A DNA stretch of 64,000 bases from Acidobacteriota bacterium (GCA_046725935.1 JBKOZO010000021.1:2752-66751); one strand, 5' to 3'. Numbered from the stretch's first letter, positions 36,545-56,091 are shown. The notes: a model not told the origin generated them from the letters alone. Made by a program: numbers and translations.

Positions 36545-37816
36545 CTATTCGACGACGAGCTGTCGGTATTCGGAATTGCAGTAACTGTCTGTCATGCCGG
36601 CGATGTGGTCGGCGATGGCGCGGTAGAAGCCGGGCCGCGTGCGGTAGCGCTCTTCGACCTCCCGGTCGACCTGCGTGAGGGCAACCTCCCGGAGAAACGG
36701 CACCGAAAGCTCCTGCTCCAGGACACGCAGCACGTCGTCGGGCAGGAGCCTCGGATTCTCGGCGTAGGCCCGGAAGAGGCCGGAGAGCACGCGCCGGGCG
36801 TGGCCGTCGTGCCGCGACACCGGGAAGGAGTGAATGATGTGCCGGTACACGAACTCGCGCAGCTCCGCGTAGAGACGCCGGCCCGCGTCGGTGAAGCCCA
36901 CGAGGTCTCCGGGCAGGCGGTCGCGCCGCGCGTAGAAGTCGTCGGCCGTCTCGATCCGGACGCTTTCGAGCCAGCGCTCGATCCGGGCCCGCGAACCCTC
37001 TACGAGGTCCGCGGAGAGGATTCCGATCATGCCGCGGATCAGGGCGGCGCGCCGCGACGCCGCGTCGCTGCCCCAGCCGCGCGCGGCGCGGACCTGCTTG
37101 GAGATCGCGAGCTCCTCGATGGCCCGCTCTTCGGTCAGCGGCAGGCCGTCCTCGAGATCGTGCGTCTGCTGCGCGATCTCGTCGGTCCAGTTGACGACCT
37201 GCGCTTCGAGACTTCCTCCCGACTCGAACCGCAGGCCCTCCGGGAAATCCAGCGGGAACGGAAAGTCGCGCGGCCAGGCGGTGTGCTTCAGGACGCCTTC
37301 GCGCACGTCGTGGGTCATGTTCAGGCCGGGTTCCTCGTAGCGCTTCTCGAGGCGGTCGAGGACGCGGACGGACTGGAAGTTGTGCTTGAAGCCCCCCGCC
37401 TCCGGGTGGCTCTCGCGGAGCAGCCGATCCAGGACGTATTCGCCCGAGTGGCCGAACGGCGTGTGTCCGAGGTCGTGTCCCAGGGCCACGGCCTCGGTCA
37501 GGTCCTCGTTCAGGCCCAGCGCGCGGGCGACGCTGCGCGCGATCTGCGACACCTCGATCGTGTGCGTCAGGCGCGTGCGGAAGTGGTCCCCCTCGTAGGG
37601 GATGAAGACCTGCGTCTTGTGCTTGAGCCTGCGAAAGGCCCGCGAGTGGATGATGCGGTCGCGGTCGCGAGCGTAGTCGGTCCGCGCGTCGCCGGGGCTG
37701 GACGACACCGGGCCTCGGGGACGCTGCGCGCGGGCGCTCTTGGAGGCGAAGACGGCGAGACGCTCCTCCTCGAGCCGCTCGAAGTGCTCCCGCGAATACG
37801 CGACGGCGGTGGTCAT
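36545..37816 (-). CDS. dgt: dGTP triphosphohydrolase-like HD-domain protein
   Basis: The ATG 37816 start overlaps the folC stop (ATGA). [21 protein letters not shown]...[17 protein letters not shown]...[11 protein letters not shown]. Confidence 0.9.
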
Positions 37817-39129
37817 GGTCTTTCGTCGAAGCGGCCGGAAAGGAGCGCCGCGCGCGCCTCGCCGACCAGATACAGAGAGCCCGCGATGATTATAGTTTCC
37901 GCGGTCGGCCTCACGAGGAGCTCTTCCATCGCCGCTTCCAGGCTCCTTGCGGGAGCGGCGTCGGGCCGGGCGTCGGAGAAGCGGCGGGCGAGGTCCTCCG
38001 GCGACGCCGCGCGGTCCGAGGCCGCCGGAACGAGGCGGATGCGCGTGACGGCGGGGCCGAGCGCCGCGGCCATCGCCTCGACGTCCTTGTCGGCCATCGC
38101 TCCGAAGACGAGGTCGGGCGCGACCCGCACCTCCGAAAGAAAGCGGCGCAGGGCGAGCGCGCCGTCGGCGTTGTGACAGCCGTCGAGGAGGACCGTCGCG
38201 CCGCGCACGCGGAAGCGCTCGAGACGCCCCGGCCAGCGCACCGACGCGACGCCGCGCGCGATCGTCTCGGCGGAGAGATCGGGCTCGAGCAATTCGGCGG
38301 CCCGGACCGCCGTCGCGGCGTTGCGGGCCTGGTGCGCGCCCAGGAGCGGCGTCTCGAGGGCGTACTCGCGGACCGGTGTGGCCAGTCGGAAGCGCGTGGC
38401 CTCGAGCGTGGCCTCGACTCCGGTCAGGCACGTCTCCTTCTCCATCTCGTGCAGCCGCGTGCCGACGTTCCTCGCCGCATTCCGGAAGGCCTCCCGCACG
38501 GGCTCGAGCGGGCTTTCGACGAGCGCCGGCTTGCCCGCGCGGAAGATGCCGGCCTTCTCCGCCGCGATCGCGGCGACGGTTCCGCCGAGCTCCTCGATGT
38601 GGTCGAGGGATATCGACGTCACGACCGAGACGGAGGCCGGCGCGACGTTGGTGGCGTCGAACCTCCCCCCCAATCCGACCTCCAGGACGGCCAGGTCGAG
38701 GTTCCGGCGCGCGAAGACCGAAAACGCTGCGGCCGTCATCGCCTCGAAATACGTCACGGGCACTTCGGGCGCGCGGTCCGCCGCGGTGAAGACCTCGCCG
38801 AGGACGTCGTCGAGCTCTTCCGGAGCGATGTCGACGGGGCCTAGCCGGATTCGCTCCGTCACGTCGATCAAGTGCGGGGAGGTGTAGAGACCCGTTGTCA
38901 GGCCCGCCTCCGCGGCGATCGAGGCGAGCGTGGCCGCCGCCGAGCCCTTGCCGTTGGTCCCGGCCACCAGCACCGATTCCACCTTGCGCTCCGGCCGGCC
39001 CAGCCGCTCGCAGACGGCGTCGATTGCAGCCAGCCCCAGCTTCATGCCGCGGATGCCGAGGGACTCCAGGCGGGCGAGATTCGGGAGGCGGGAGGCGGAA
39101 GGCGGGAGGCGGGAGGAAGGGAACGACAA
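37813..39129 (-). CDS. folC: bifunctional folylpolyglutamate synthase / dihydrofolate synthase
   Basis: ...GLAAIDAVCERLGRPERKVESVLVAGTNGKGSAAA... The listed start is TTG 39129. Codons 5-15 are encoded by the heptamer repeat. Confidence 0.9.
   Translation of the reverse strand: MSFPSSRLPPSASRLPNLARLESLGIRGMKLGLAAIDAVCERLGRPERKVESVLVAGTNGKGSAAATLASIAAEAGLTTGLYTSPHLIDVTERIRLGPVDIAPEELDDVLGEVFTAADRAPEVPVTYFEAMTAAAFSVFARRNLDLAVLEVGLGGRFDATNVAPASVSVVTSISLDHIEELGGTVAAIAAEKAGIFRAGKPALVESPLEPVREAFRNAARNVGTRLHEMEKETCLTGVEATLEATRFRLATPVREYALETPLLGAHQARNAATAVRAAELLEPDLSAETIARGVASVRWPGRLERFRVRGATVLLDGCHNADGALALRRFLSEVRVAPDLVFGAMADKDVEAMAAALGPAVTRIRLVPAASDRAASPEDLARRFSDARPDAAPARSLEAAMEELLVRPTAETIIIAGSLYLVGEARAALLSGRFDERP
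39083..39117. repeat. five tandem heptamers (GGGAGGC-like), G-rich on the + strand
   Basis: GGGAGGC GGGAGGC GGAAGGC GGGAGGC GGGAGGA read directly from the sequence. They lie inside the first codons of folC (minus strand). Confidence 0.8.
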
Positions 39130-39135
39130 CGTCTC

Positions 39136-39164
39136 GCCTACCCCCCTGCCGCCTACCGCCTACC
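39136..39164. repeat. inverted partner array (GCCTACC x3) at the accD 3' end and accD-folC spacer
   Basis: GCCTACC at 39136-39142, 39151-39157 and 39158-39164. The reverse complement GGTAGGC differs from GGGAGGC at one position. Confidence 0.7.
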
Positions 39165-40008
39165 GACCCTCGTAGAGCAGTCGCAGGCAGCGGCCGAGCG
39201 TCGCCTTCATCTCCGAGCGTTCGACGATCATGTCGAGCATCCCGTGCTCGAGCAGAAACTCGGAGCGCTGGAACCCCTCGGGCAGCGTCTGCCGGATCGT
39301 CTGCTCGATGACGCGCGGGCCCGCAAAGCCGATCAGGGCGTTGGGCTCGGCGATGTTCAGGTCTCCGAGCATCGCGTACGACGCCGTGACGCCGCCGGTC
39401 GTGGGATCCGTCATGACCGAGATGTAGGGAATCTTGCCCTCGGAGAGCCGTCCGAGCGCCGCCGCGATCTTGGCCATCTGCATCAGCGAAAGGATGCCTT
39501 CCTGCATCCGCGCGCCGCCGGACGTCGACACCAGGATGAGCGGACGCCGGTCGGTCAGGGCCCGCTCGGCGGCGCGGGCGATCTTCTCGCCGACGACGGA
39601 TCCCATGGATCCGGCCATGAAGAAGAATTCCATGGCGCCGATCAGGACCGGGATCTCTTCGAGCGAGCCCGAGGTGATCACGATCGCGTCGGAAGGGCCG
39701 ACCGAGGCCTCGGCATCCCGAAGCCGGTCGCGATATTTCTTGCTGTCACGAAACTTCAGGGGATCCGAGGAGCGAAGGCCCGTGTCCATCTCGACGTACT
39801 TCTCGTCGTCGAAGAGCATCCGCAGACGTTCCGGCGCGGAGAGGCGGAAGTGGTAGCCGCACTTCGGACAGATCTTGAAGTTCCGCGCGAGCTCCTTGTT
39901 GTAGAGGATCTGCCGGCAGTTGTCGCACTTGACCCAGAGCCCCTCGGGCACCTTGCTCGTGCGTCCCTCGCGGACTTCCTTGGGCGCCCGATCTTTTTTG
40001 AACCACAT
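39160..40008 (-). CDS. accD: acetyl-CoA carboxylase carboxyltransferase beta subunit
   Basis: N-terminal zinc ribbon (VKCDNCRQILY...CPKCGYHFR) followed by the carboxyltransferase fold. Confidence 0.95.
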   Translation of the reverse strand: MWFKKDRAPKEVREGRTSKVPEGLWVKCDNCRQILYNKELARNFKICPKCGYHFRLSAPERLRMLFDDEKYVEMDTGLRSSDPLKFRDSKKYRDRLRDAEASVGPSDAIVITSGSLEEIPVLIGAMEFFFMAGSMGSVVGEKIARAAERALTDRRPLILVSTSGGARMQEGILSLMQMAKIAAALGRLSEGKIPYISVMTDPTTGGVTASYAMLGDLNIAEPNALIGFAGPRVIEQTIRQTLPEGFQRSEFLLEHGMLDMIVERSEMKATLGRCLRLLYEGR

Positions 40009-40074
40009 GTGTCGAAGGACGCGATCCTAGCAGGAAGCCGGCGGCCGGGTGTCAAACAACTCGGCCCAGAAGAC

Positions 40075-40872
40075 TTATGGCCCCGCGGGCGGTCCGGGGA
40101 GGATCCGGCTGACGACCTCGAAGCGTCCGGCTCGCTCGGAGAACGGCGTCCCGAACGCGCGTTCGAGGTTTCCGGCGGTGAGGACCTCCCGCCGGCTCCC
40201 CTGCGCGATCGCGCGCCCTTCCTTCAGGAGAAGCACGCGCGAGGCGAGGTCCGAGGCGAGCAGGATCTCGTGCGTCACGAGCACGACCGTCGTCCGCCGC
40301 TCCCGGTGGACGCGCCAGAGGGTCTCGAGAAACTCCAGCCGGTGCCGCGGGTCCAGGTCCCCGGTCGGCTCGTCGAGCAGCCAGATCTCGGCCTCCTGCG
40401 CGAGGGCCCGCGCGAGGAACACGCGCCGCCGCTCGCCTCCCGACAGCGCCGCCGCGTCGCGGTCGGCCAGCGCGAGGACGTCGCAGGCCTTCATCGCCCC
40501 GCGCGCGATCTCGAGATCCGCGGCGGTTTCCGCCACGAAGCCCCGACCATGCGGGGCGCGACCCTGGAGCACGAGATCGATGCATCGGATCGGGAACACG
40601 AGGTCCACGCTCTGCGCCACGTACGCGATGCGGCGCGCGGTCTCCCGGCGCGGCAGCGACGCCAGAGGCCGCCCGTCGAAGAAAAGCTCTCCGCCCGACG
40701 GCGGCAGCACGCGCGCCAGCACTTTCAGGAAGCTCGACTTGCCCGACCCGTTCTCTCCGAGCACCGCAAGGATCTCGCCTTCTTCGATCGACGCGTCCAG
40801 GCCCGAGAGCGCCCGGTTGGCGCCGTAGTCCGCGGTCAGTCCGCGAGCCTCGATGCGCGCGACGCCCGTCAC
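40075..40872 (-). CDS. ABC transporter ATP-binding protein (FecE/BtuD type)
   Basis: The GTG 40872 start overlaps the permease stop (GTGA). Walker A GENGSGKSS, signature LSGGERRR, Walker B WLLDEP. Confidence 0.9.
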   Translation of the reverse strand: MTGVARIEARGLTADYGANRALSGLDASIEEGEILAVLGENGSGKSSFLKVLARVLPPSGGELFFDGRPLASLPRRETARRIAYVAQSVDLVFPIRCIDLVLQGRAPHGRGFVAETAADLEIARGAMKACDVLALADRDAAALSGGERRRVFLARALAQEAEIWLLDEPTGDLDPRHRLEFLETLWRVHRERRTTVVLVTHEILLASDLASRVLLLKEGRAIAQGSRREVLTAGNLERAFGTPFSERAGRFEVVSRILPGPPAGP

Positions 40873-41855
40873 GGTGTCCTCAACAACAACCAGGCGAAGA
40901 GCGGCGCGCCCAGGCCCGCCGTGATCGCACCGATCGGCAGCTCCGCCGGCGAGAGCGCGGCTCTCGAAACGGCGTCGGCCGCGACGAGGAGGGCCGCCCC
41001 GGCGAGCGCCGAGAGGGGGAGCAGGGCCCGCTGGTCGTTGCCCGCCACGATGCGCACCGCGTGCGGCACCAGCAGGCCCACGAAGCCGATCACGCCGGCG
41101 AAGGCGACCGCGGCCCCGGTCAAGAGCGACGCCGCCAGGAACACGATTCCCTTGGTGCGCTCGACGTCGACGCCGAGGGCCGCCGCGTTCTCCTCGCCGA
41201 CGGCGAAGAGGTTCAGCCGCGCGGCCATCGCGACCAGGACCGCGCCGCCGAAGAGGACGTACGGCAGCAGAGTCGCGACCTTGCCGGGAGTGGCGTTGGC
41301 CAGGCTTCCCATCATCCAGAAGAGCATCGTTCGCGCGGCTTCGCCCGACGCGATCGAGAACGCGGCGAGCAGCAGCGCCGAGAAGAAGGCGTTGGCGATC
41401 AACCCGGCGAGCAGGAGGCGCTGGAGGTCCAGACGGCGCCCGCGGCGCGCCAGCGCGGCCACGCCGAGCGACGCCGCCACGGCGCCCGCGAACGCGGCCG
41501 CCGGAGACAGGAGCGGCGACACCGACAGCAGGGCCGCTCCGGCCGCGCCGGCCGCCGCGCCTCCCGAGGTGCCCAGGAGAAACGGATCCGCGAGCGGATT
41601 CTTCAGCAGCGCCTGGAGAGCCGCTCCCGCCAGCGCCAGGCACGCGCCCACCAGCGCCGCGAGCGCGACGCGCGGGGCCCGCAGAGCCGCGATCGTGCGC
41701 GCCATCTGCCCCGCCTCGCCGCGGCCCGAAACGAGATCCGACAGGGACAGCGACACTCCCCCGACCGAAAAGGCGATCGCCGCGACGGCGGCGAGAAGCG
41801 CCGCTCCCACCAGGAACGCTGCGATGCGCGCGGAGCGTGTACGCGGGCCCTTCAT
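40869..41855 (-). CDS. FecCD/BtuC-family ABC permease
   Basis: The ATG 41855 start overlaps the binding-protein stop (ATGA). ...LQALLKNPLADPFLLGTSGGAA... and ...GVIGFVGLLVPH... Confidence 0.9.
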   Translation of the reverse strand: MKGPRTRSARIAAFLVGAALLAAVAAIAFSVGGVSLSLSDLVSGRGEAGQMARTIAALRAPRVALAALVGACLALAGAALQALLKNPLADPFLLGTSGGAAAGAAGAALLSVSPLLSPAAAFAGAVAASLGVAALARRGRRLDLQRLLLAGLIANAFFSALLLAAFSIASGEAARTMLFWMMGSLANATPGKVATLLPYVLFGGAVLVAMAARLNLFAVGEENAAALGVDVERTKGIVFLAASLLTGAAVAFAGVIGFVGLLVPHAVRIVAGNDQRALLPLSALAGAALLVAADAVSRAALSPAELPIGAITAGLGAPLFAWLLLRTP

Positions 41856-42760
41856 CGAATGGCCGCGGAAAGACGCTCGAGCATGTCGAAGACGCGAGGC
41901 CCCGGCCGTGTCAACGCCGACTCGTCGAGCCGGACGACCTTCGCCTTCGCGATGGGTCCGAGCGACAGCGGTCCGGATGCGAACGCCCGCGCGTACGCCT
42001 CCTTCGTCTGCTCCGACTCCGGCACGACGAGCACATCGATCGGAGCCGTCGCCAGGTATTCGGCGGACAGGACCGGCCAGCCGCCACGGTCCCCAACGAG
42101 GTTGCGTGCCCCCGCCTCCGTCAGCAGATCGTCGAGGAAGGTCCCGCGCCCGGCTGCCTGCGGCGGATCCGGCCACACGAGGAGCAAAGCGCGCGGGCGC
42201 TCCCCGGCCGCGGCCCGGCTCCGGACCGCCTCGCGCTTTCGGGACAGCTGCGCGACCAGCGCGTCTGCTTCGGCGCGCCGTCCGAGACGGTCTCCCACCT
42301 CGCGGATGGCTTGGAGCACCGCGTCGAGCGAGCCGGAGGGCACGACCGCAACGGGCAGACCGGCCGCCTCGAGCGCGCGCACGGAGCCCTGCGCGTTGCC
42401 CTCGGCGACGGCGAGCACCAGGTCGGGCTTGAGCACGGCCACCTTTTCCGCGTCCACCTCGAGGCCTCCCACGCGCGGAATCTTCCTCGCGTCCTCCGGG
42501 AAATCGGAGTACTCCGACACGCCGACCAGCCGATCGCCCGCGCCGAGCGCGAAGACGATCTCCGTCAGGTTCGGAGCGAGAGCCACCACGCGCGCCGGAG
42601 TGCGGACCGCAGCGGCCGTGGCGCGCGGGCGTTCGCGGCAACCCGCGCAAACGCTCGCGGCCGCGAGAAGTCCGACGAGCGCTCGGAAGGCGCGGGTCCG
42701 CCGCCCGACGAGGTCCCTAACCCTGGGACTCGGCCTCTTCCAGCTCGTTGCGCACGCCAA
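41852..42760 (-). CDS. BtuF/FhuD-type periplasmic substrate-binding protein (B12/haem/siderophore class)
   Basis: ARVVALAPNLTEIVFALGAGDRLVGVSEYSDFP...KPDLVLA...; signal-like N-terminus. The start is uncertain; ATG 42760 overlaps the upstream gene by 44 nt. Confidence 0.8.
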   Translation of the reverse strand: MACATSWKRPSPRVRDLVGRRTRAFRALVGLLAAASVCAGCRERPRATAAAVRTPARVVALAPNLTEIVFALGAGDRLVGVSEYSDFPEDARKIPRVGGLEVDAEKVAVLKPDLVLAVAEGNAQGSVRALEAAGLPVAVVPSGSLDAVLQAIREVGDRLGRRAEADALVAQLSRKREAVRSRAAAGERPRALLLVWPDPPQAAGRGTFLDDLLTEAGARNLVGDRGGWPVLSAEYLATAPIDVLVVPESEQTKEAYARAFASGPLSLGPIAKAKVVRLDESALTRPGPRVFDMLERLSAAIR

Positions 42761-42941
42761 GGCGCTGACACGCGGCGTCGTACATCTGCCGCGCGGCCTT
42801 CTGCGCGTTCTGCAGCTCGGCCAGGCGGTCCTTGACCTTGGCGAGCTCCTCCTGGATCTCGCCTTCGAGATCCTGGATCTCGCGCTTGGTCACCGTCAGC
42901 GTGTTCTCGTAGAACTTCTTCTGATCTGCCGAAAGGGCCAT
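42717..42941 (-). CDS. 74-aa coiled-coil protein, function unknown
   Basis: ATG 42941 is preceded by AGGAGG at 9-nt spacing. The heptad-like sequence is KREIQDLEGEIQEELAKVKDRLAELQNAQKAARQ. The gene sits 24 nt downstream of the kinase-TonB_C gene. Confidence 0.6.
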   Translation of the reverse strand: MALSADQKKFYENTLTVTKREIQDLEGEIQEELAKVKDRLAELQNAQKAARQMYDAACQRLGVRNELEEAESQG

Positions 42942-42965
42942 TCCCACTGACCTCCTAATGCGTTC

Positions 42966-45722
42966 TCAGGGCCTGACTTCGATTATGACGGGACGCCACA
43001 TCTTCACGGGAATCCCGTTCTTTGTCGCGGGCCGGAACTTCGACACCTTCACCGCCGACACGACCGCGTTGTTGACGGCGCTCTGACCTTCCAGACCCTG
43101 CTGGAGCCGCGAATCGGTGACCTGGCCGGTCTCATCGACGAGCACCAGCACGACGACCTTTCCTCCGACGTGCTGCTGCCTGGCGATCGGAGGATAGACC
43201 ACGCGCGGCGGCGCGAGCAGGGCCGGTTCCACGACGCCCGCGCCCGGTCCCACGAGGTCGCCCCGCTGCACCTCCGCTTCCTTCAGGCCCAGAGTGGGCG
43301 GTTCGGTCGGAGCCGCCGTGGGCTCCGGCCGCGCCGTCGGGACCGGCGTGGGCAAGGCGGTCGGAGGCGCGAGCGTGGGCTCCGGTTCCGCCGCTGCGGC
43401 TTCGGCGGTCTTCTTGGAGGCGGCCGCCGCGGCGGCGGCCTTCTCCATTTCCTTGCGCTTGGCGGCGAGCTGTCGCTGCACCTCGGCCTCGACCGCCTTC
43501 GGATCGAGCGCCGGCGCGGTCGGGGTCAGCATCACCGCCGGAACGGCGGTCGGCACGGCCGCGGCCGCAGGAGACGGCGTCACCGCCACGTGCGCGGGAG
43601 GCGGAGGAGCCTGGCGCTGCGTCAGCTTCCAGACCGCGAAGCCGACGAGGGCCGCGGCCGCCACGGCGATCGCTGCGTAAAGCGGCGCGCGGCTCTTGCG
43701 CTCGGCTTCGGCGCTTCGATCGAGGGAGCCGAACACCTCGCCGCCGCGCGGCGCGGGGCCGGCCGGTGTCGTCGGCGGCGGCGGGACCGCCGGAGGCTCC
43801 GGCCGGGGCGCCGCATCCGGACGGCGCGCGATCGGCGCGCCTTTGGACTTGCGCTTGCGGGCCGGCTCGGCTTCCGACTCCAGGGAGGCTGCCTGCGCGG
43901 CGGCTTCGCGGGCCTTGGCCTCGGAGACCGCCGCCTCCTCGGCCTGGAGCCGATGGAGGTAGATCGCGACGTCCGCGCTCCCCGGCGCCGGCGTGTAGGA
44001 GTAGAGGACCGAGTCCAGGTCCCGCAGCATGTCCGACGCGTTGGTGTATCTCTCGTCGGGATCCTTCGCGAGCGCCTTCATCACGACGGCGTCGAGACTC
44101 TGGGAGACTTCGGGATTCGTGCGCGAGGGCGGAGCGACGTCGGCGTTGCGGACCTTCTCGAGGATATTGATGTCGGTGTCGCCGCGGAAGAGCCTTTCCC
44201 CCGTCAGCAGCTCGTGCAGCACCACGCCGAGGGAGAAGAGGTCGCTGCGGCGGTCGATCGGCTTTCCCCAGGCCTGCTCCGGGGACATGTACTGCATCTT
44301 CCCCTTCAGCGCGCCCGACTGGGTCTTCGACGCCTTCGACGCGGCCTTGGCGATGCCGAAGTCGCAGAGCTTGATGTCGCCCTCGTAGGAGATGAGGATG
44401 TTCTGCGGCGACACGTCGCGGTGGACGATGTTCAGCTCGCGCCCGTCGGCGTCGCGGCGGCGGTGCGCGTAGTCGAGCGCCGAGGCGACCTTGGAGGCGA
44501 TGTACACCGCGAGCGGGACCGGCAGCGGCACGCCCAGCTCCCGCGCCGACAGCTCGATCGCGCGCAGGTCCCGGCCGTCGACGTACTCCATGGCGATGAA
44601 GTAGCCGCCGGCCTTGATCTTCCCGAGGTCGTAAATGTGGATGATGTTGGGGTGATTCAGCTGTGCCGCGAGCTTGGCCTCGTCGGCGAACATCGTGATG
44701 AAGTCTTCGTCGTCGGCCAGGTGCGGCAGGATCTTCTTGATCGCGACGATCTTCTGGAAGCCCTCGACGCCCGTGCGTTTGGCCTTGGAAAGCTCGGCCA
44801 TGCCACCGCTGGCGATCTTTTCCAGGATCTCGTACTGGCCGAAGTGATCGGGCCCGGTGGACGGCACCGCGGCCGCCGGCTCCTCGCGCCGGCGGGGCGG
44901 AGCGGCCGGAGCCGCCGGAGCTGCCGGTGTGGAGACGGGCGGCGGCGTCGCTCCCGGTGCCGCGGGCTTGGCCTTCGGCAGCACGATGCCCGACAGCGTG
45001 TCGGACAGGATCTTGTCTACGTCGGTGTCCGAGGAAAGCTTCGGACGCGGCGGCGCGGCCGGACCTCCGGCAGCGCGCGCGCCCTTGGCGTCGAGATTGA
45101 GACCCGAGAGCGTGTCGCGCAGCCGCTTTTCGACGTCGCTTTCCGCTGCCGCGGGCTTGGTGGACGCGGGCGGAGGCGTCCGGTCGGAGGCCGTGGGCGC
45201 CGGCGGCGCCGCGGGCGCGCGCGGCGCGGCCGGGCGAGCCGCTTCGCCGGTCAGATCCGACAGAACGTCCGAGAAGATGTCGGAGGAGGTCAGAGGGGTC
45301 GCGCGCGGAAGCTGCGCGGTGTCGATGCGCATCGTCTTGGCGCCGATGTCGGAGGAGCCGACGGCCTCGCGAATCGACGCGATGAAATCCTCGTCGGAGA
45401 AGGGACGCGCGAGGATGTCGAACGCTCCGACCTTCTGGGCGTCGGCCTTGCGGTTGGTACCGCGGTACCCACTCATCATCAGGACGATCGGCGGGGCCGT
45501 GGCGCCCCCCTTCTTCCGGATCTCGCGGATGACCTCGGCGCTCGGAAGACGCGGGAGCATCCCCGAGAGGAGGACCAGATCGAACCGATTGGAACCAAAG
45601 GCCTGGAGACCCGCCTCGCCGTCGTGGGTCTCCGTTAGCGCATGCCCGAGGGGCTGGAGCAGAGCGCGGATCCGCTCGATGTAGCGGGGCTCGTATTCGA
45701 TCAAAAGAACTTTTTTGGGCAT
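42966..45722 (-). CDS. pseudo-receiver / Hanks Ser-Thr kinase / single TM / Pro-rich spacer / TonB C-terminal domain fusion (918 aa)
   Basis: REC-like aa 1-125 with Ser at the acceptor position ([10 protein letters not shown]). Kinase motifs [30 protein letters not shown] segment [20 protein letters not shown] (aa 680-700). C-terminus [31 protein letters not shown]...[14 protein letters not shown]. Confidence 0.85.
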
Positions 45723-45797
45723 GAACTGAACCTATTGTCGCCGGAAACCGAAGGAAATCAAGGAGAAGCGGTGATCCGCCGTACGCTTTCGGCCCCA

Positions 45798-45803
45798 TAT
45801 AAT
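45798..45803 (+). promoter_or_regulatory. candidate -10 box (TATAAT) for yebC
   Basis: TATAAT lies 21 nt upstream of the ATG. AGGAG at 45815-45819 is spaced 5 nt from ATG 45825. The -35 is weak. Confidence 0.35.
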
Positions 45804-45824
45804 CCGGCCTCGTTAGGAGCGCGT

Positions 45825-46565
45825 ATGTCCGGTCACAGCAAATGGAGCACGATCAAGCACAAGAAGGGCGCGGCCGACGCCAAGCGCGGTCGGATCTTCA
45901 CCAAGCTCATCCGCGAGATGACGATGGCCGCCAAACAGGGAGGCGGTGCGCCCGAGTCCAATCCCCGCCTCCGCAAGGCGATCGACGACGCCAAGGCCGT
46001 CAACATGCCCGCCGACAACATCAAGCGGGCGATCCAGCGGGGAACCGGCGAGCTGCCCGGCGTCTCCTACGAGGAGGTGACCTTCGAAGGCTACGGCCCC
46101 GGCGGCACCGCCGTCCTCATCGAGGCGCTGACGGACAACAAGAACCGGACGCTGCCCGAGATCCGGACGATCTTCTCCAAGCACGGCGGCAACCTCGGGG
46201 AGTCCGGGTCGGTGCGCTTCCTGTTCCAGAAGATGGGCTACATCGCCATCGAGAAGGAAAAGGCCGGGGAGGACGCCGTGATGGAAGCGGCGATCGAAGC
46301 CGGCGCCGACGACGTCGAGACGACCGACCAGTACCACGAGGTCAAGACGTCGCCCGACAGCTTCCCCGCCGTCAAGTCGCATCTGGAAGCGAAGGGGCTG
46401 CCGCTCGCCGTCGCGGAGATCTCGATGATCCCGTCCACCGAGGTCGCCCTCGACGCCCGCAAAGCGGATCAGATGGTCAAGCTGATGGAGGCGCTCGAGG
46501 ATCACGACGACGTCCAGAATGTCTGGGCGAACTTCGACTTCGAGGAGACGAGCACGTCCGCGTAG
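45825..46565 (+). CDS. yebC: YebC/PmpR-family transcriptional regulator
   Basis: [32 protein letters not shown]... Confidence 0.93.
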
Positions 46566-46575
46566 ACTCCGGCCG

Positions 46576-47052
46576 ATGAAGGTCCTCGGCCTCGATCCCG
46601 GCACGACGGCCACGGGCTTCGGAATCGTCTCCTTCGAAAGCGGCCGCCTCGCCCTCGAACAGTGCGGCGTCTGGCGGCCTCCGTCGCGGCTCGGCTTTCC
46701 CGGGAGGCTCGACTTTCTCCTCACCGCGGCCGTGGAGCTCTTGAACGACTGCCACCCGGCCGCGGTCTCCGTCGAAACGGTCTTCGCGGCACGGAACATC
46801 GCCTCGGCGCTCAAGCTGTCGCACGCCCGGGGCGTGCTTCTCGCGGCGGCTTCGCGCTGCGCGGTGCCCGTGTTCGAGTACGAGCCGCGCCTGGTCAAGA
46901 AGGCGCTCGTGGGCTACGGCCAGGCCGAGAAGGAGCAGGTCCGCGCGATGGTCCTCTCGCTGCTGGCGCGGCACCGAGCCCGCGTGCCCCTCGACGCCGC
47001 CGACGCGCTCGCTCTGGCGATCTGTCACGTCCACGCCTCGGGGGCGCGCTAG
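46576..47052 (+). CDS. ruvC: Holliday junction resolvase RuvC
   Basis: MKVLGLDPGTTATGFGIV...VETVFAARNIASALKLSHARG...ADALALAICH. Confidence 0.93.
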   Translation: MKVLGLDPGTTATGFGIVSFESGRLALEQCGVWRPPSRLGFPGRLDFLLTAAVELLNDCHPAAVSVETVFAARNIASALKLSHARGVLLAAASRCAVPVFEYEPRLVKKALVGYGQAEKEQVRAMVLSLLARHRARVPLDAADALALAICHVHASGAR

Positions 47053-47061
47053 CGCGCCGCG

Positions 47062-47125
47062 GTCCCAGGTTTCAGGTTCCAGATTTCAGGAGTCCACTTG
47101 GAACTTGGAACCTGGAACCCGGAAC
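47062..47125. repeat. inverted arrays of four tandem heptamers each (GTTYCAG x4 / YYGGAAC x4)
   Basis: GTCCCAG GTTTCAG GTTCCAG ATTTCAG (47062-47089), an 8-nt spacer, then TTGGAAC TTGGAAC CTGGAAC CCGGAAC (47098-47125). The arms are about 22/28 complementary. Confidence 0.8.
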
Positions 47126-47157
47126 CCCGTCAGCCGGGTGCTAGCATCATCGCGAAT

Positions 47158-48078
47158 ATGTCTTTCCAGGGCTCGATCCAGGAGCTCCCTGTCCCCGACA
47201 TCATCCAGCTCGTTTCGGTCTCGGGGAAGACCGGGATGTTCATGCTGATGCGGGGGGCCGAGAGGGGCTACATCTACCTCCGCAACGGGAAAATCGTCCA
47301 CGCCGAGGTGGGGAGCATCCGGGGCGAGGAAGCCGTCTACGCGCTGGCGATCTGGTCCTCCGGCGACTTCCAGTTCACGCCGGGCAAGGAGACCGAGGCC
47401 ACCACCATCGACAAGACCAACACCTCCCTGCTCATGGAGGCCGCCCGCCGGCTCGACGAGTGGAAGGTCCTCTCCCGCAAGATCCCGGGAGTCGACTACA
47501 TACCGATGCTGAAGCCGCGGGAGATGGGCGAAGCCGTGACCTTGTCGCCTCTCGAGTGGAACCTCGTCATCCGGATCGACGGCCGAAAGACGGTGGAGGA
47601 ACTGGCGCGCGCCACGAGCTCCAACTCCTTCGACACCGCAAAGGTCCTCTACGGTCTCGTGACGGCGGACCTGATCGACATGCGATCGCGAGACGCCGCA
47701 GCCGCGCGCAGCGAAGCGGCGAAGGGCTCGGCCGCCGAGGCGGGTCCGGCTCCGGCGCCGTCCGCACCCGCGTTCCGGCCGGCTCCGCCGCCCTCCGGCG
47801 GGACCAGCCCGGGCGTCCTCGGCGACGAGAAGAAGATCCTCATGATCCTCTGCACGCGCGTCAAACAGGAGGCCGAGACCGCCATCGGAGAATCCAACCT
47901 GCCGGGCATCGACCGGCCCTACAAGCAGGCCCTGGCCGAGATCGACCGCGGGAGAGGCGTCGAAGCGGTGCGCGATCTGATCCGCCACACCGAAAAAGCG
48001 ATCTCCTCGATTCGCGGTCCCGCGATCATGAAGGCCTTCCAGGAAAAAATGTCGCTGGTGATGCAGCCAAAGGTCTAA
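47158..48078 (+). CDS. DUF4388 (PATAN-like) domain protein
   Basis: MSFQGSIQELPVPDIIQLVSVSGKTGMFMLMRG...IYLRNGKIVHA...GEEAVYALAIW. The listed ORF start at 47098 lies inside the heptamer repeat. Confidence 0.8.
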   Translation: MSFQGSIQELPVPDIIQLVSVSGKTGMFMLMRGAERGYIYLRNGKIVHAEVGSIRGEEAVYALAIWSSGDFQFTPGKETEATTIDKTNTSLLMEAARRLDEWKVLSRKIPGVDYIPMLKPREMGEAVTLSPLEWNLVIRIDGRKTVEELARATSSNSFDTAKVLYGLVTADLIDMRSRDAAAARSEAAKGSAAEAGPAPAPSAPAFRPAPPPSGGTSPGVLGDEKKILMILCTRVKQEAETAIGESNLPGIDRPYKQALAEIDRGRGVEAVRDLIRHTEKAISSIRGPAIMKAFQEKMSLVMQPKV

Positions 48079-48279
48079 TCACCCGCCGAAGCGCTGGCGG
48101 ATTGTGTCCTTCCTCACTTTTCGGCGGCGACCGAACGCGCTTGGCGCGGCCCGCAAACACTGCACCTGTTCGAACGGACGGTTTCCTGACCGAGCAGAAG
48201 ATGTTTGGCGATTCGCCACTTTTGCCTTATCATTTTCGGAAGTTACGTTCCCCCGGCGGGCTCGAAAGGAGACATTTTC

Positions 48280-49677
48280 ATGATGGCGAAGCGGACCCGG
48301 ACCGCGCTCCTCGGGATGCTGATCTGCCTGACCGCCGTTGCGGCAATCGCGCAGCCTGTCCCGCCGCCGGTCGTGGCCCCCAACTCTCGGGGCGACATCG
48401 GACTCTTCACGATGTCGACGGCGGACAATCCCCGCGCCGGACAGTTCACGCTCGGGTTCTACGGCTGGTACGCGCCGAGAATCGCCGGGGAGATCTTCCC
48501 CGCGGAACCCGAAGAGGTGCGCTACTTCGCCAACTACGGCGGCGCAGCCTCCCTGGGCCTCGGCCTGACGGACTGGTGGTCGATCTTCGTCGCCGGCGGA
48601 GGCCAGGTGACCAAGAGCGGCGGCGGCTGGGCCGGCGGCGTCATCAACGGCGTGCCGATCGCAGGACCGTTCCAGGTCAGCGAGGGTACGAAAGTCCGGG
48701 TCGGAACCAAGTTCAACTACCACTCCGAGGCCGACTACGACTTCCGCATCGCCGGCTGGCTGTCGGCGAACATCCCGGTCGGCAACGCCACCGTCAACAA
48801 CGAAACCACGGGTGAGCCGATCCAGTCCCTGAACTCGCGGCGCACCGACTGGGAGTGGGGCGCGGCCGTCACCAAGTCGATCTTCACCGGCTTGGTCTCC
48901 TACCAGCTCTCCGGCGAGCAGGACAACGACGTGCGCGTGCCCAACCTCCTGAGGTTCGGATTCGGCGTCGAGGTGCCGGTCGCCCCGATCATCCACGTCA
49001 TCGGCGAGATCAACTACAACGTGCTCGACGGCGGCGACGTCCCCGAGCCCGACTACGCCACGCTGATCGGCGGCGCCCGCATCTGGTTCGGCCACACGGG
49101 ATGGGCCCTGACAGCCGGCTTCTCGACGAACATGACGATGCTGTTCTCCAACGGCATCAATCCGAACCCCTTCGGCGGCCTCCTGGGCATCACCTACGCC
49201 GCCTGGCCTCCGGCTCCCCCGCCGCCGGTCGTCGTTCCGGCGCCCGAACCGGTCGTCGAGCAGCGCGTGGTCGAGACGGCGCCCGCCCCGGCGCCCGCGC
49301 CGCCTCCCCCGCCGCGCCCGGCGCCGAGGACGACCTCCGACGAGATCTTCTTCGACGGCAAGAGCGCCCGGCTGACCAACATCGCCAAGGCCGTCCTGGA
49401 CGGCGTGGCCTTGCGCATGCGCAACGACTTGAACGCCACAGCCGTGGTCACCGGCTTCACCGACAACACCGGCAGCGAGAAGGCCAACCTCGAGCTCGGC
49501 CAGAAGCGGGCCGACGCCGCCAAGGAGTATCTGGTGACGCGCCATGGCATCGACCCCGGCCGCATCTCGACCCAGTCCAAGGGCGCTGCGGACCCCGGCT
49601 ACGACAACGCCACGGCCGAGGGACGGACGAAGAACCGCCGCGCGCAGATCGTCGTCACGCTAATATCGGGGGCGTGA
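48280..49677 (+). CDS. outer-membrane protein with a C-terminal OmpA/MotB peptidoglycan-binding domain
   Basis: AAGGAG lies 8 nt before ATG 48280. Signal peptide LLGMLICLTAVAAIAQ. C-terminus ...VVTGFTDNTGSEKANLELGQKRADAAKEYL...TKNRRAQIVV. Confidence 0.85.
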   Translation: MMAKRTRTALLGMLICLTAVAAIAQPVPPPVVAPNSRGDIGLFTMSTADNPRAGQFTLGFYGWYAPRIAGEIFPAEPEEVRYFANYGGAASLGLGLTDWWSIFVAGGGQVTKSGGGWAGGVINGVPIAGPFQVSEGTKVRVGTKFNYHSEADYDFRIAGWLSANIPVGNATVNNETTGEPIQSLNSRRTDWEWGAAVTKSIFTGLVSYQLSGEQDNDVRVPNLLRFGFGVEVPVAPIIHVIGEINYNVLDGGDVPEPDYATLIGGARIWFGHTGWALTAGFSTNMTMLFSNGINPNPFGGLLGITYAAWPPAPPPPVVVPAPEPVVEQRVVETAPAPAPAPPPPPRPAPRTTSDEIFFDGKSARLTNIAKAVLDGVALRMRNDLNATAVVTGFTDNTGSEKANLELGQKRADAAKEYLVTRHGIDPGRISTQSKGAADPGYDNATAEGRTKNRRAQIVVTLISGA

Positions 49678-50964: not shown

Positions 50965-53313
50965 TTAGTTCTTCCCGGAAGGGGGCGACTCTCCGGTGAG
51001 CTGCGCCAGGATGGCGCGCGCCGAGGGGTTCTCGGGTTCGGCGTTGACGAGCTTACGGGCGTAATCGATCGCCGCCTGCCGCTTTCCCACCTTCAGAGAA
51101 AAAGACGAGAGGGCTTCCAGGATCTCGGGGTTCCCGGTGTGCCGGGTGTGGGCGGCGGTGAGCACGTCGATCGCCTTCGACGTCTGCCCGATGGAATCCA
51201 GAGCCACTCCATAGACGTAGGCGTAGCGGGCGTTTCCCGGAGCGAGTTTCGCGGCGATGGCGAACTCCTCGACGGCCTCCGGGGCCTTCCGGCGCCGCAC
51301 GAGCGACAGGCCCAGGGCGTGGTGCAGTCCGGGATCCCGCAGCGCGATTCGCAGGCCTTCCCGCAGCGTCGACTCGGCCTCGCCCTCCCGGCCCTGCCCG
51401 CGGTAGAGGTCCGCGAGGTTCGCCCAGGCCGCGGCGATCGCGGGAGTGATCGCCAGCGCGGCCCGATACTCGGCCTCGGCCTTCCCGGCGTCTCCGCGCA
51501 ACGCGTAAATCGATCCGAGCTGCAGGTGGGCCTCCGCCCGATCCGCGTCGACGTTCTGCGACTCCACGAACTCGGCCAGGGCCGCATCGAAGTCGGCTCT
51601 CTCCGTGGCGCTCATCCCCTCTCCGGGTACCGATGCGAGGGCGCGCACCGCCTCCAGCCGGACCGTCCGGATCGGGTCCCGGAGAAGAGGAGCGACGACG
51701 CGCAGCCGCTCGCTCGGGTCGAGTCCCTGGGCCGCGCCCAGCGCGCCCTGCCGCACGAGAGGGTCCGGATCCGCCAGCGCCGTCTCGAGCGCGGTCCGCG
51801 CGACGGCGACACGCGCATCGAGCATGGACGCGGCGGTGCCCCGCCGGATGGCGGGCCGCGAGGAGTCGGAGACGAAGGCGGCGAGCGCGCCCTGCGCGCC
51901 TTCGAGCTCCTCGCGGCCAGCGTGCGCGATCTCGCCGTAGTCCGGCGTCCGCCGCAGTTTGTCGCCCCACCACTTCGAGGCCGCGTCGGCCGCCCAGCGG
52001 GCGGACTTGTCGCGGTGGCATTCGTTGCAGGCGTTGGGCGTGCCGAGCGAGACCGACAGGTCCGGCCGCGGCACACGGATGCTGTGGTCCCGCCGGGCGT
52101 GCACGACCATGTAGTTGCGCGTCGGCATGTGGCAGGCGACGCAGCTCGACCCCTTCGAATCGACGCGATGGAAGTGGTGCTTCGGCGTCTCGAACTTCTC
52201 CGTCAGATGGCACGAGGCGCAGACACGGTCCACGCCGCCCTTGACCTTCAAGTCGTGCGGGTCGTGGCAGTCGGTGCACGACACTCCCGCCGCGTGCATC
52301 TTGCTCTGGAGAAACGACCCGTACTCGTAGACCTCGTCCTGGATCTGTCCGTCGGCGTAGTACAGGGGCGTCTCCAACAGGCCGGGCCGATGCGTCTGCA
52401 TGAGCGGCTGCCCGTACACGTAGTCCGCCGCCACCACCGAACGGCGCGAGTGGCACCGCGCGCAGGTCTCGATCTCGGCGCGCGAGGTCCGCGGCACGCG
52501 GCGCTTCGCGATGCCCGTCTTCATGTCCATTTCCCAGACCGCTTTCGCCGGGTCCCTCAGGAGGACCGCCAGGCCCTTCTCCGCGTCCGTCTTCGAGGCC
52601 TTCCCCGCCTTTACCGCCTCGGCCCAGGCCACGTGCGCGGAGCCCGGGCCGTGGCAGGCCTCGCACGACACGTCGAGCTCGGACCAGGTCGTGGCATAGG
52701 TCTTCGCCGCGGCGGAATAGCCCTTCTTCACGTTCGTCGAGTGGCACTCGGCGCACATGAAGTTCCAGTTCTGGTACGGGCCGGTCCAGTGCAGAGGGTC
52801 GGTGTGGGGAACGGGCTCTTTCGGATAGAGATGGAACCAGCGCTGCCCTCCCTCGTTGGCGGCGCGCGTGTCCCAGACGACGTTCAGCGCCTGGTACCGG
52901 CCTCCGGGAAATGCGATCAGGTACTGCTGGAGCGGATACACCCCGAATGTGTACGCGACCGGGTACTCCTGGAGCTTGCCGTCGGGCCCGTCGGTCCGGA
53001 CGAAGTACTTCCCGTCCCGCTTGAAGAACGTGGACGTGACGCCGAAGTGCGTGAACGACGCGTTCTCGAAGTTGCCGAGGACGGTCGCGTCGGTCGCCTC
53101 CTGCATGGCGAGGTCGTGATGCGAGCCCTTCCAGCGGGCCTCCTCCGTGGCGTGACAGGTGGCGCAGGCCTGACGGCCGACGAACGTCGCGTTCGCCGCG
53201 CGCGGAAGCCTGGTCTTCGGGCCGGGGCTCGACGTCGACGCCTCCGGCCGCCCGCGGCAGGCCAGATCACCGAGAGCGAAAACGGTCGCGAGCGCGATCG
53301 GAATCCAGCGCAT
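50965..53313 (-). CDS. octahaem c-type cytochrome fused to C-terminal TPR repeats
   Basis: Eight CxxCH motifs: CATCH, CAECH, CEACH, CARCH, CTDCH, CASCH, CVACH, CNECH. N-terminal signal sequence. About 300 aa of TPR repeats at the C-terminus. Confidence 0.85.
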   Translation of the reverse strand: MRWIPIALATVFALGDLACRGRPEASTSSPGPKTRLPRAANATFVGRQACATCHATEEARWKGSHHDLAMQEATDATVLGNFENASFTHFGVTSTFFKRDGKYFVRTDGPDGKLQEYPVAYTFGVYPLQQYLIAFPGGRYQALNVVWDTRAANEGGQRWFHLYPKEPVPHTDPLHWTGPYQNWNFMCAECHSTNVKKGYSAAAKTYATTWSELDVSCEACHGPGSAHVAWAEAVKAGKASKTDAEKGLAVLLRDPAKAVWEMDMKTGIAKRRVPRTSRAEIETCARCHSRRSVVAADYVYGQPLMQTHRPGLLETPLYYADGQIQDEVYEYGSFLQSKMHAAGVSCTDCHDPHDLKVKGGVDRVCASCHLTEKFETPKHHFHRVDSKGSSCVACHMPTRNYMVVHARRDHSIRVPRPDLSVSLGTPNACNECHRDKSARWAADAASKWWGDKLRRTPDYGEIAHAGREELEGAQGALAAFVSDSSRPAIRRGTAASMLDARVAVARTALETALADPDPLVRQGALGAAQGLDPSERLRVVAPLLRDPIRTVRLEAVRALASVPGEGMSATERADFDAALAEFVESQNVDADRAEAHLQLGSIYALRGDAGKAEAEYRAALAITPAIAAAWANLADLYRGQGREGEAESTLREGLRIALRDPGLHHALGLSLVRRRKAPEAVEEFAIAAKLAPGNARYAYVYGVALDSIGQTSKAIDVLTAAHTRHTGNPEILEALSSFSLKVGKRQAAIDYARKLVNAEPENPSARAILAQLTGESPPSGKN

Positions 53314-53377
53314 GCTTCTCTAGAAATGGATCCGAGTTGCAACTCTCATCGCTGGCCGCCAAAGCGGCGAGTCCGAG

Positions 53378-53981: not shown

Positions 53982-55148
53982 TCAGAGCTGGAACTGTAGT
54001 CGAAGCTGGTAGAAGTTGGTGTGTCCGACGAGCCCGGCTTTGTCCAGGCGGCCGTAGCCGTAGTTGAACTCCAGACGCCACTGCGCGGTCGGATACCAGG
54101 ACAACGCGCCGCTCCATCGGTCGAAAACGCCGCCGTCCACGGCCCCGCTCGTCAGATCGATTTTCGAATACCGGGCACCGACCTCCCACGCTCCGCATCC
54201 GCCGTGCTTGAACGAGAAAGGGGCCGACGGGCGAATCATCCCGAACGTTCCGGTTTCGTGGTCGTAGGGACGAGTCTCACCCGTCAACGCGTAGGTGGCC
54301 ATGATGTAGAAGCCCGAGAAATCGGGACTGCCCGTCTGCGGTGACGACACGTACGTCGCGGTGTATTCGGCGGAGAGCGTGAAGGCGTCCTGAACCGCCG
54401 CCAGCTCTCCGGCGATCGACGTCGCGTGATTGGCGGGGAAGGTCCCCGTGTCCACGAAATCCGGGGCCTCGTAAACCTCCGGAACGCTCTTCAGCTTGAA
54501 GCTCCCGTTCGGTGCCTCACGGTAGACCGCCGAGACGCCCAGATGCAGGAGCTCCCTACCGCCGTCCTGATCCATCGCCAGTCCCGTGACCCGTCCGGCG
54601 AAGATCTGGCCGCTCTCGCTGAAGCTCAGATCGTCGTCGAGCCAGTTGTTGAACCATCCCCCGCACCAGGTCATCCTGCCTCCCAGGATCGCGTTCGAGA
54701 ACCGCACGCCGACGACGTGCGACTCGAAGAAGGTCGAAGCCGTCGACATCACGGAGAGCTCCATGAACGGCACGTCGCGGGCGTTCTCCATCATCTCGAG
54801 CCCGATTCCCTCCTTTTGCTTTCCGATCGTGACGTTCGCCAGATCGCCGATCGGGATGGACAGCAGCACGTCGGTGAATGCCCACGTGCGCGACTCGGTC
54901 TGGTCGAGACCCCGGTAGTTGCCGGCGAGCTCGAAGCGCCAGGGACGGTGGAACTTGAATTCCCCCCTCACCGCGAGATCGTCGAGGCGGAAGAGCTGTT
55001 CGGCGGAGAGGTCGCCGACCTGCTGCTTGTTCGCCGCGTCCTGCGCGTAGAACGCGCCGTCCTCCATCGCGGCGAAGCCCAGGCGCGCCGTGACCCAGAA
55101 GGTACCGAGCTCATACCAGGGACGCGTCAGGATCTCCTGGGCTGCCAT
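53982..55148 (-). CDS. phosphate-selective porin O/P family outer-membrane channel
   Basis: Beta-strand-rich sequence ending ...NFYQLRLQFQL. The listed ATG start lacks a signal peptide; an in-frame signal peptide is encoded upstream (see finding). Confidence 0.72.
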   Translation of the reverse strand: MAAQEILTRPWYELGTFWVTARLGFAAMEDGAFYAQDAANKQQVGDLSAEQLFRLDDLAVRGEFKFHRPWRFELAGNYRGLDQTESRTWAFTDVLLSIPIGDLANVTIGKQKEGIGLEMMENARDVPFMELSVMSTASTFFESHVVGVRFSNAILGGRMTWCGGWFNNWLDDDLSFSESGQIFAGRVTGLAMDQDGGRELLHLGVSAVYREAPNGSFKLKSVPEVYEAPDFVDTGTFPANHATSIAGELAAVQDAFTLSAEYTATYVSSPQTGSPDFSGFYIMATYALTGETRPYDHETGTFGMIRPSAPFSFKHGGCGAWEVGARYSKIDLTSGAVDGGVFDRWSGALSWYPTAQWRLEFNYGYGRLDKAGLVGHTNFYQLRLQFQL

Positions 55149-55192
55149 CGGCAGCGCCAGTGCGCAGCCGAGAATCGAAAACGAGAACCTCT

Positions 55193-56020: not shown

Positions 56021-56091
56021 GTGCCAGACCCGCCTCCGAATACCGACCCCACTCGAAAGCCCACACCAACCTCGCATGACAACTCCTTAGC

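Follow-up and report, generated by a model that had tools for sequence, protein, structure and literature searches.

What does a bacterial protein kinase do with the business end of TonB? The question is raised by a gene in a stretch of 64,000 nucleotides from an Acidobacteriota bacterium (GCA_046725935.1, JBKOZO010000021.1:2752-66751; this whole stretch is called the window below). The gene encodes a protein of 918 amino acids (aa) in which a Hanks-type Ser/Thr kinase is joined to a C-terminal domain (CTD) of the TonB type. To our knowledge, TonB CTDs are known almost solely as the pulling end of an energy transducer, and receptor Hanks kinases almost solely from monoderm bacteria with PASTA or similar sensors. 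The favoured answer is a tentative one: the sequence suggests a single-pass receptor Ser/Thr kinase whose periplasmic arm, built like TonB, would sense contact with an outer-membrane partner, with TonB boxes as the most probable ligand. The evidence throughout is comparative and derives from metagenome-assembled genomes (MAGs).

The open reading frame (ORF) begins with ATG and its product is identical to the NCBI MAG protein P0001. The G+C content across the window is 63-73%. A preliminary description of the locus, made from the DNA alone, had divided the protein into five parts, and this anatomy is borne out by Pfam, TIGRFAM, hydropathy and composition. Three Pfam domains exceed their curated cut-offs, each of them expected: Response_reg (aa 5-117, 45.4 bits against a cut-off of 30.2), Pkinase (aa 297-564, 141.7 bits, 3.8e-41) and TonB_C (PF03544, aa 840-910, 42.6 bits against 24.6). 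The residues singled out in that description were also found (S53, K329, H434-R435-D436, D454-F455-G456, S480-P481-E482 and Y843-P844). Only the Arg that replaces the receiver Lys had been placed one position off, at 105 instead of 106.

The kinase is intact and, as predicted from its sequence, of the active type. In an alignment of 25 orthologues at 56-100% identity, used for both the kinase and the receiver-like domain, the catalytic residues K329, E348, H434-R435-D436, N441, D454-F455-G456 and S480-P481-E482 are invariant. The complete catalytic core of Hanks-type kinases (VAIK Lys, alpha-C Glu, HRD, DFG and SPE/APE) is present, in line with the first description of the domain. The Gly-rich loop is partly degenerate (A-S-G-G-M-A), and the activation loop carries T467 and S469 in a PknB-like TQS motif. 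Across the family the kinase domain is 59-90% identical. The possibility of a pseudokinase was considered and ruled out, since every catalytic residue is invariant.

The N-terminal domain is best described as a conserved pseudo-receiver. Despite the fold-level Pfam match, the window protein lacks the acceptor Asp, the acidic pair and the conserved Lys of receivers. The acceptor position is S53 in the window protein, S, A or G in its clade, and S or N in more distant clades. The acidic Mg-binding pair is degraded to E9/Y10, and R106-P107 replaces K-P (Arg in the window's clade, Lys in sister clades). Family alignments contain an acceptor Asp in no clade, and a canonical phospho-receiver is therefore ruled out, as had been concluded earlier for this CheY-like fold. 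Between the pseudo-receiver and the kinase there are three copies of a short motif, among them …RLRDTLSGL and …ILSDTLSGI. These three motifs (aa 144-246) sit in a disordered linker, are conserved in every clade, and may serve for docking or as targets of phosphorylation.

The protein has one hydrophobic segment only, at aa 679-698. This transmembrane (TM) helix is Ala/Gly-rich and contains neither Ser nor His. A hydropathy scan of 19 family members showed its sequence to be variable, with no Ser/His pattern. Six Lys and Arg residues flank it on the N-terminal side and two on the C-terminal side, and no N-terminal signal peptide is present in the 918-aa protein. Because of the single helix, its more basic N-terminal flank and the missing signal peptide, the first ~680 aa, with the kinase, are predicted to be cytoplasmic, and the spacer and TonB_C domain periplasmic. 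The spacer (136 aa) is 26% Ala and 18% Pro. The N-in signal-anchor helix and Pro-rich periplasmic spacer of TonB are thus both present, and the conserved TM helix with a Ser/His (SHLS-type) motif that binds ExbB-ExbD is absent. A TonB-like topology without the motor-binding motif had been described before and is correct by hydropathy and flank charges. Since the TM helix is unconserved and lacks the Ser/His motif, the protein more probably acts as a sensor than as an energiser.

That the CTD has the TonB fold is supported by several methods. In addition to the Pfam match, the TIGR01352 (tonB_Cterm) model scored 41.5 bits against a cut-off of 27.1. A profile built from 20 CTD sequences matched solely solved TonB CTDs in the PDB sequence set (best 1.8e-6). 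The AlphaFold2 model of aa 815-918, with a mean predicted local distance difference test (pLDDT) score of 94, has its helices and strands in the same order as TonB. In the PDB, the 16 highest-ranking Foldseek matches of this model are all TonB or FusB CTDs, among them CTDs in complex with FoxA, TbpA, BtuB and FhuA; TolA domains rank below the TonB CTDs, with E-values of 0.3 or worse. The above-cut-off profile scores, the confident model and the fold comparison together support the TonB_C-like domain first recognised in the preliminary description. Complexes of TonB with its receptors are well established. By analogy with them, a TonB fold on a periplasm-spanning spacer would make an arm suited to extend to the outer membrane and pair with a strand of a partner in TonB fashion. 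Because the TM motif of TonB and the acceptor Asp of receivers are both missing and the kinase core is complete, the family is classed, on sequence grounds, as receptor Hanks kinases with a TonB-type sensor arm. Coordinates are collected in Table 1.

Table 1. Features of the kinase-TonB_C locus and its flanks, numbered from the first letter of the window.
Feature	Position	Strand	Basis
Gene for the 918-aa pseudo-receiver / Hanks kinase / TM / spacer / TonB_C protein	42966..45722	(-)	ORF, translation, Pfam and NCBIfam, orthologues of the same architecture
Receiver-like domain without phospho-acceptor Asp, aa 1-125	45348..45722	(-)	Response_reg, 45.4 bits; family alignments
Ala/Pro-rich linker with three copies of a short conserved motif, aa 144-157, 196-208, 234-246	44985..45293	(-)	Kept in all three clades
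Hanks-type Ser/Thr kinase domain, aa 294-570	44013..44843	(-)	Pkinase, 3.8e-41; invariant columns
Single transmembrane helix, aa 679-698	43629..43688	(-)	Hydropathy scan of 19 family members; flank charges
Periplasmic Ala/Pro-rich spacer, aa 699-834, with one conserved charged helical stretch (about 740-760)	43221..43628	(-)	Composition, alignment
TonB-type CTD, aa 835-918; YP at 843-844, KMWR at 907-910; preceded by a conserved 11-residue segment	42969..43220	(-)	TonB_C and tonB_Cterm, PDB profile, AlphaFold2, Foldseek
74-aa coiled-coil protein gene	42717..42941	(-)	DNA; 55-98% identity across loci; single-helix model
BtuF/ShuT-like periplasmic binding protein; start codon uncertain	41852..42760	(-)	Peripla_BP_2, 7e-30; ShuT and BtuF closest solved
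FecCD/BtuC-type permease	40869..41855	(-)	FecCD, 1e-81; ATGA junction
ABC ATPase, haem/corrinoid/siderophore type	40075..40872	(-)	ABC_tran, 1e-27; NCBIfam haem and corrinoid ATPase models; GTGA junction
accD and folC (context)	37813..40008	(-)	Translations, synteny
Divergent yebC, ruvC, DUF4388/PatA_N and 490-aa OmpA-family gene (context)	45642..49677	(+)	Pfam; synteny in most lineages

The architecture is conserved far more than chance would allow: the protein search returned more than 120 protein clusters with all four Pfam matches, and a scan with one genome per species found relatives encoded in 391 stretches. The closest relatives are encoded in MAGs of Thermoanaerobaculia and other Acidobacteriota. 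Beyond the 80 closest loci, the nearest full-length relatives are Pkinase+TonB_C proteins of 700-1340 aa. These more distant proteins were recovered by an exhaustive search with the CTD, whereas a word-index search with the CTD alone returned little but short fragments of the same family. One of them, P0258, is 63% identical to the window protein in the kinase domain, 44% in the CTD and 34% in the pseudo-receiver, and it has the three linker motifs. They are orthologues, and all these proteins form a single orthologous family of Acidobacteriota (Thermoanaerobaculia and Holophagales-labelled MAGs). Many copies are present in the databases under the automatic name 'TonB family protein', which hides proteins that are probably not energy transducers. 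Among the closest non-kinase relatives of the CTD there are many proteins with 2-6 tandem TonB_C domains (P0199, P0202, P0207 and others); one of 1149 aa has six.

The gene directly downstream of the kinase encodes a 74-aa coiled-coil protein. A strong Shine-Dalgarno sequence had been reported for it, and AGGAGG indeed lies 9 nt 5' of its ATG at 42941. The preliminary description treated this gene as a bystander; it is instead the only universal partner. The coiled-coil gene has the kinase directly upstream in all 45 metagenome loci with sufficient sequence, and comes after the kinase in 64/64 genome loci with sufficient sequence and in all sister loci. The importer genes further downstream are missing from part of the family, so the coiled-coil protein is the obligate partner of the kinase-TonB_C protein. 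It is 55-98% identical in all loci, the best-conserved product of the kinase-coiled coil-btuFCD block, and the small gene of sister loci (74-78 aa) encodes the same protein at 62-70% identity. A total of 3591 homologues of about 75-80 aa were found, with zero Pfam matches; those with a taxon label are from Thermoanaerobaculia, Holophagales or unclassified Acidobacteriota. The predicted structure is one 57-residue helix followed by an acidic tail (pLDDT 90). Core and surface positions are both conserved, as would suit a helix with more than one of its faces packed against partners.

In the window, the coiled-coil gene is followed by a complete gene set for a Type II (BtuCD/HmuUV-like) ABC importer: a cluster-A binding protein, a FecCD permease and an ABC ATPase. 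The tight operon with a BtuFCD-type importer, as first described, is correct at the DNA level. A candidate TTG start at 42760 would give the binding protein gene a 44-nt overlap with the coiled-coil gene, this start being uncertain. The binding protein is joined to the permease by ATGA (41852-41855) and the permease to the ATPase by GTGA (40869-40872), both 4-nt overlaps, and 66 nt separate the ATPase gene from accD-folC. NCBIfam BtuC, BtuF and haem ATPase models match the importer proteins under their equivalog cut-offs. Among solved structures the binding protein is closest to ShuT (haem, 1.6e-25), with an iron-binding protein second and BtuF third, and the ShuT and BtuF alignments point to neither haem nor B12 specifically. 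Were TTG 42760 the start, the leader (42620-42760, minus strand) would read …GRRTRAFRALVGLLAAASVCAGC, with a twin-Arg-like stretch and a Cys-rich end. No cobalamin riboswitch or other Rfam element was detected near the operon (the sole match in the window is a tRNA at 7612-7684), and in a scan of 37500-46200 no promoter or terminator exceeded shuffle expectation.

The linkage to uptake genes extends to other species. Genome loci were sampled as the best 80 of the 391 stretches, a sample biased to close relatives of the query. In these, the order kinase, coiled coil, btuF was found in 64/64 loci with enough sequence, and btuC and btuD in 62/64. These loci include a deep clade (L060-L080) whose kinases are just 38-49% identical and whose flanks differ: upstream are rho and then a TonB-dependent receptor of the CarboxypepD_reg-Plug-barrel type, and accD and folC are not downstream. 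That the block stayed intact in a new genomic context argues that the coupling of kinase, coiled coil and btuFCD at the operon level is real in these lineages. The receptor of the deep clade is always present after rho, on the opposite strand to the kinase, and is ~1040-1140 aa long. It was set aside as functional evidence together with rho, because rho is a housekeeping gene and the receptors are mutually 25-75% identical.

From these parts the following mechanism is proposed. The CTD would dock by beta-strand addition on an outer-membrane partner, most probably the exposed TonB box of a ligand-loaded TonB-dependent transporter. Docking would alter the self-association of the arm and, through it, the trans-activation of the cytoplasmic Hanks kinase. 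Hanks kinases are regulated via self-association, and so a single-pass kinase of this kind could read a dimer shift of the TonB type. Soluble TonB is reported to exist as monomers and dimers, in an equilibrium that BtuB binding moves toward the monomer (PMC9853854). The non-phosphorylatable receiver-like domain and the three linker motifs would serve as regulatory or docking elements. The co-inherited 74-aa protein would be the immediate cytoplasmic partner of the kinase, as an adaptor, an activator and/or a substrate. GpsB is likewise a small coiled-coil protein. This division protein stimulates PrkC, a receptor Hanks kinase, by way of the cytoplasmic domain of the kinase (PMC5786024), which is, by analogy, a precedent for such a small partner. 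In the window's lineage a haem/corrinoid-type ABC importer is inserted in the same operon, and there the signal would probably be tied to TonB-dependent uptake of the ligand. Surface signalling through sensed exposure of TonB boxes is a plausible hypothesis. The most specific form of the proposal, a phosphorylation-based surface signalling, is doubtful: a motor-uncoupled TonB look-alike that samples the exposed TonB boxes of ligand-loaded transporters and reports to the cytoplasm the amount of substrate at the outer membrane through the Hanks kinase and the coiled-coil protein, wired in Thermoanaerobaculia to a haem/corrinoid importer.

Several observations weigh against this sensor reading. 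Seven distant orthologous loci, including one in a complete genome labelled Holophagales, contain the kinase, the coiled coil, accD and folC without btuFCD; these importer-less orthologues are about 60-73% identical in the kinase domain and have the same pseudo-receiver and linker motifs. In a census taken from the coiled-coil gene on metagenome contigs, btuF came next in 42 of the 67 loci and accD in all of the other 25. Importer-less P0224, which still scores as Response_reg, nests between two importer-bearing clades in a neighbour-joining kinase tree without support values; this placement implies either one gain and one loss of btuFCD or two gains. CTD sequence features do not follow whether btuFCD is present. 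Thr14 and Thr18, both invariant in the coiled-coil protein, lie, in its predicted helix, at or beside core heptad positions and may be structural rather than phospho-sites. ExbB, ExbD and TonB-dependent receptors are absent from the 64-kb window by Pfam on 35 ORFs. The binding and signalling steps of the mechanism are all inferred, their support being comparative. What the comparisons do show is the anatomy, topology, fold and conservation of the protein, its obligate pairing with the coiled-coil gene and an importer linkage confined to some clades. The neighbours in sister loci (yebC, ruvC, ExbB-ExbD-ExbD-TonB, PatA_N, TPR, OmpA-family and FtsEX genes) resemble envelope/division housekeeping. 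With the importer missing from the distant loci and from 25 of the 67 census loci, and with P0224 placed where it is, nutrient uptake may not be the core business of the family.

The claimed linkage to TonB-dependent uptake therefore stands in part. Conservation of btuFCD holds in the window's clade and the deep clade, and fails in the seven distant loci and the 25 accD-linked census loci. The universal unit is the kinase with the coiled-coil gene, the importer being an insertion between the coiled-coil gene and accD in part of the family only. Kinase-coiled coil-accD loci without an importer rule out btuFCD as the core partner. Because the importer lies outside the family core, sensing by TonB_C for this uptake route would be at most a clade-specific elaboration.

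The same loci bring in the main rival, which shares its mechanics with the favoured reading and which we regard as rather unlikely. The arm would contact a general envelope component (OmpA-family or Pal-like proteins, a Tol-like system, or peptidoglycan), the kinase and the coiled-coil protein would regulate envelope growth or lipid synthesis, and btuFCD would be a co-transcribed passenger. This is suggested by the family-wide synteny, in which one flank is yebC-ruvC-(ExbB-ExbD-ExbD-TonB)-PatA_N-TPR-OmpA-FtsEX, the opposite flank is accD-folC, and btuFCD is absent. The DUF4388/PatA_N and OmpA-family genes are retained in the window, and coiled-coil partners of receptor Hanks kinases are known in division control (PrkC-GpsB, PMC5786024). 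However, the CTD model fits TonB CTDs far better than TolA CTDs, and the kinase-coiled coil-btuFCD block has stayed intact, with overlapping junctions, after its move to a new context. The neighbouring cluster also contains no TolB or Pal by Pfam, and a canonical Tol-Pal neighbourhood in the sister loci was rejected for this reason. The divergent strand of sister loci reads OmpA-family … TPR … PatA_N … [TonB-ExbD-ExbD-ExbB] … ruvC … yebC. In the window the DUF4388/PatA_N gene (326 aa) and the 490-aa OmpA-family gene come after yebC-ruvC at 47098-49677 (plus strand), and their synteny with the kinase extends to nearly all lineages. As a rule PATAN domains occur alongside receiver domains, and a link of the PatA_N neighbour to the pseudo-receiver of the kinase is conceivable.

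The motor genes of the sister loci also bear on the energiser alternative raised in the preliminary description, that the kinase gates a TonB-like energiser. The protein, a TonB paralogue, would then use an ExbB-ExbD motor encoded elsewhere to pull TonB-dependent receptors, with the kinase and pseudo-receiver as an on/off switch. The TM helix, spacer and CTD do follow the TonB order, the YP motif is retained, the operon includes the inner-membrane half of a TonB-dependent route, and in sister lineages an ExbB-ExbD-ExbD set is a divergent neighbour. Yet a canonical TonB (238-246 aa, with a His-bearing TM helix) belongs to that set and is the obvious partner of the motor. In one sister genome the CTD of this 238-aa, His-bearing TonB is just 35% identical to that of the kinase, and such a dedicated TonB argues against coupling of the kinase to the motor. 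The TM helix of the kinase, by comparison, is unconserved and has no Ser or His. No exbBD genes were found by tblastn in the 80 closest loci (L001-L080). In the window, tblastn with acidobacterial ExbB, ExbD, TonB and TonB-dependent receptor queries detected no ExbB, ExbD or receptor, which agrees with the Pfam result and with the absence noted at the outset. We also know of no TonB precedent for a 680-aa cytoplasmic module. A kinase-gated energiser is thus one of the weaker rivals and is improbable. In L081-L084, L086 and L087 (about 5.7-8.3 kb in locus coordinates) the ExbB-ExbD-ExbD-TonB set is flanked by ruvC and PatA_N and is divergent from the kinase; it is missing at that position in the window and in the Holophagales-labelled genome.

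The other weaker rival applies to the window's clade only. In this scheme the arm docks the co-encoded BtuF/ShuT-like protein and the kinase reads its loading, as in sensor kinases that use periplasmic binding proteins. For the E. coli proteins, an interaction of purified TonB with BtuF in solution has been reported (James et al. 2009, cited in PMC9853854), and the binding protein gene is the first importer gene after the coiled-coil gene. In two MAGs (L065, 13112-13969; L066, 3379-4206) the kinase, coiled coil and btuF are kept, and the next 6 kb downstream yielded neither btuC nor btuD. Both MAGs come from one study, though, and may represent a single event. Many lineages carry the kinase without an adjacent binding protein gene, and CTD residues show no systematic difference between loci with and without btuF. 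Sensing through the binding protein is accordingly given little credence.

Comparison with known systems shows where the sensor kinase proposed here would fit. With TonB it shares the N-in single TM helix, the Pro-rich periplasmic spacer and the C-terminal TonB fold with its YP motif. Its gene also stands ahead of a binding protein/permease/ATPase set, in the way that tonB stands in front of importer genes in Vibrio operons of the tonB-exbBD-hutBCD type. Unlike TonB, it has a cytoplasmic part of ~680 aa with signalling domains where TonB has a short stub, its TM helix is unconserved and without the Ser/His motif, exbBD is not nearby, and the Ton motors adjacent in relatives come with their own canonical TonB. 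With the receptor Hanks kinases PknB, PrkC and StkP it shares a cytoplasmic kinase, a juxtamembrane linker, one TM helix, an extracytoplasmic ligand-binding domain and a PknB-like TQS/TQT activation loop. Its sensor, however, is TonB_C on a periplasm-spanning spacer in a diderm and not a series of PASTA repeats, and it adds the N-terminal pseudo-receiver and the three linker motifs. A further likeness, to PrkC-GpsB (PMC5786024), is that a small coiled-coil protein may be the cytoplasmic partner, but the 74-aa protein is unrelated to GpsB in sequence (no Pfam match) and is encoded immediately downstream.

The FecA-FecR-FecI system has the same proposed logic, in which a single-pass protein of the inner membrane relays the ligand state of an outer-membrane transporter across the periplasm to a regulator in the cytoplasm. 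The resemblance is a functional analogy only. Among the window ORFs there was no extracytoplasmic function sigma factor, no anti-sigma factor of the FecR type and no transporter that has an N-terminal signalling domain, and the proposed readout here is the TonB box itself, with phosphorylation as the output. M56/BlaR1-like peptidase fusions with TonB_C exist, and these, the MxcH-type receptors and Anabaena SjdR similarly reuse TonB_C as a periplasmic interaction module that does not energise. The MxcH-type model NF038079 was matched in the NCBIfam search, and SjdR carries TonB_C outside energy transduction (PMC8597729). In none of these is TonB_C coupled to a Hanks kinase or a pseudo-receiver.

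The preliminary description knew of no characterised example, and none was found in the literature searched, abundant as the architecture is in databases. The full texts covered, including papers on kinase classification, TonB evolution and kinomes, contained no description of the kinase-TonB_C protein, its pseudo-receiver fusion or its small partner; a 2008 myxobacterial kinome was outside this coverage. The family is core in at least two acidobacterial lineages and occurs in hundreds of species-level genomes, with a TonB arm apparently used as the outward-facing part of a kinase. If the sensor reading is true, this would be a new route by which diderm bacteria read outer-membrane events. The family offers a testable three-part system of a kinase, a 74-aa partner and, in some lineages, an importer.

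Four other regions of the window were noted. A second Hanks kinase, fused to TPR repeats, is encoded at 5169-7646 (minus strand). Its stop-to-stop ORF enters the tRNA gene at 7612-7684 on the same strand, and because of this overlap the true start must be further downstream. In a 1067-aa ORF at 8945-12148 (plus strand), an MFS-like membrane region is joined to a spermidine-synthase-type domain and, at the C-terminus, TPR repeats. A 784-aa protein encoded at 50965-53319 (minus strand) contains several multihaem cytochrome c motifs, with HEAT and TPR repeats after them. A cluster at 53982-60573 (minus strand) encodes a phosphate-selective-type porin (Porin_O_P), a HAD hydrolase and two sulfatases.

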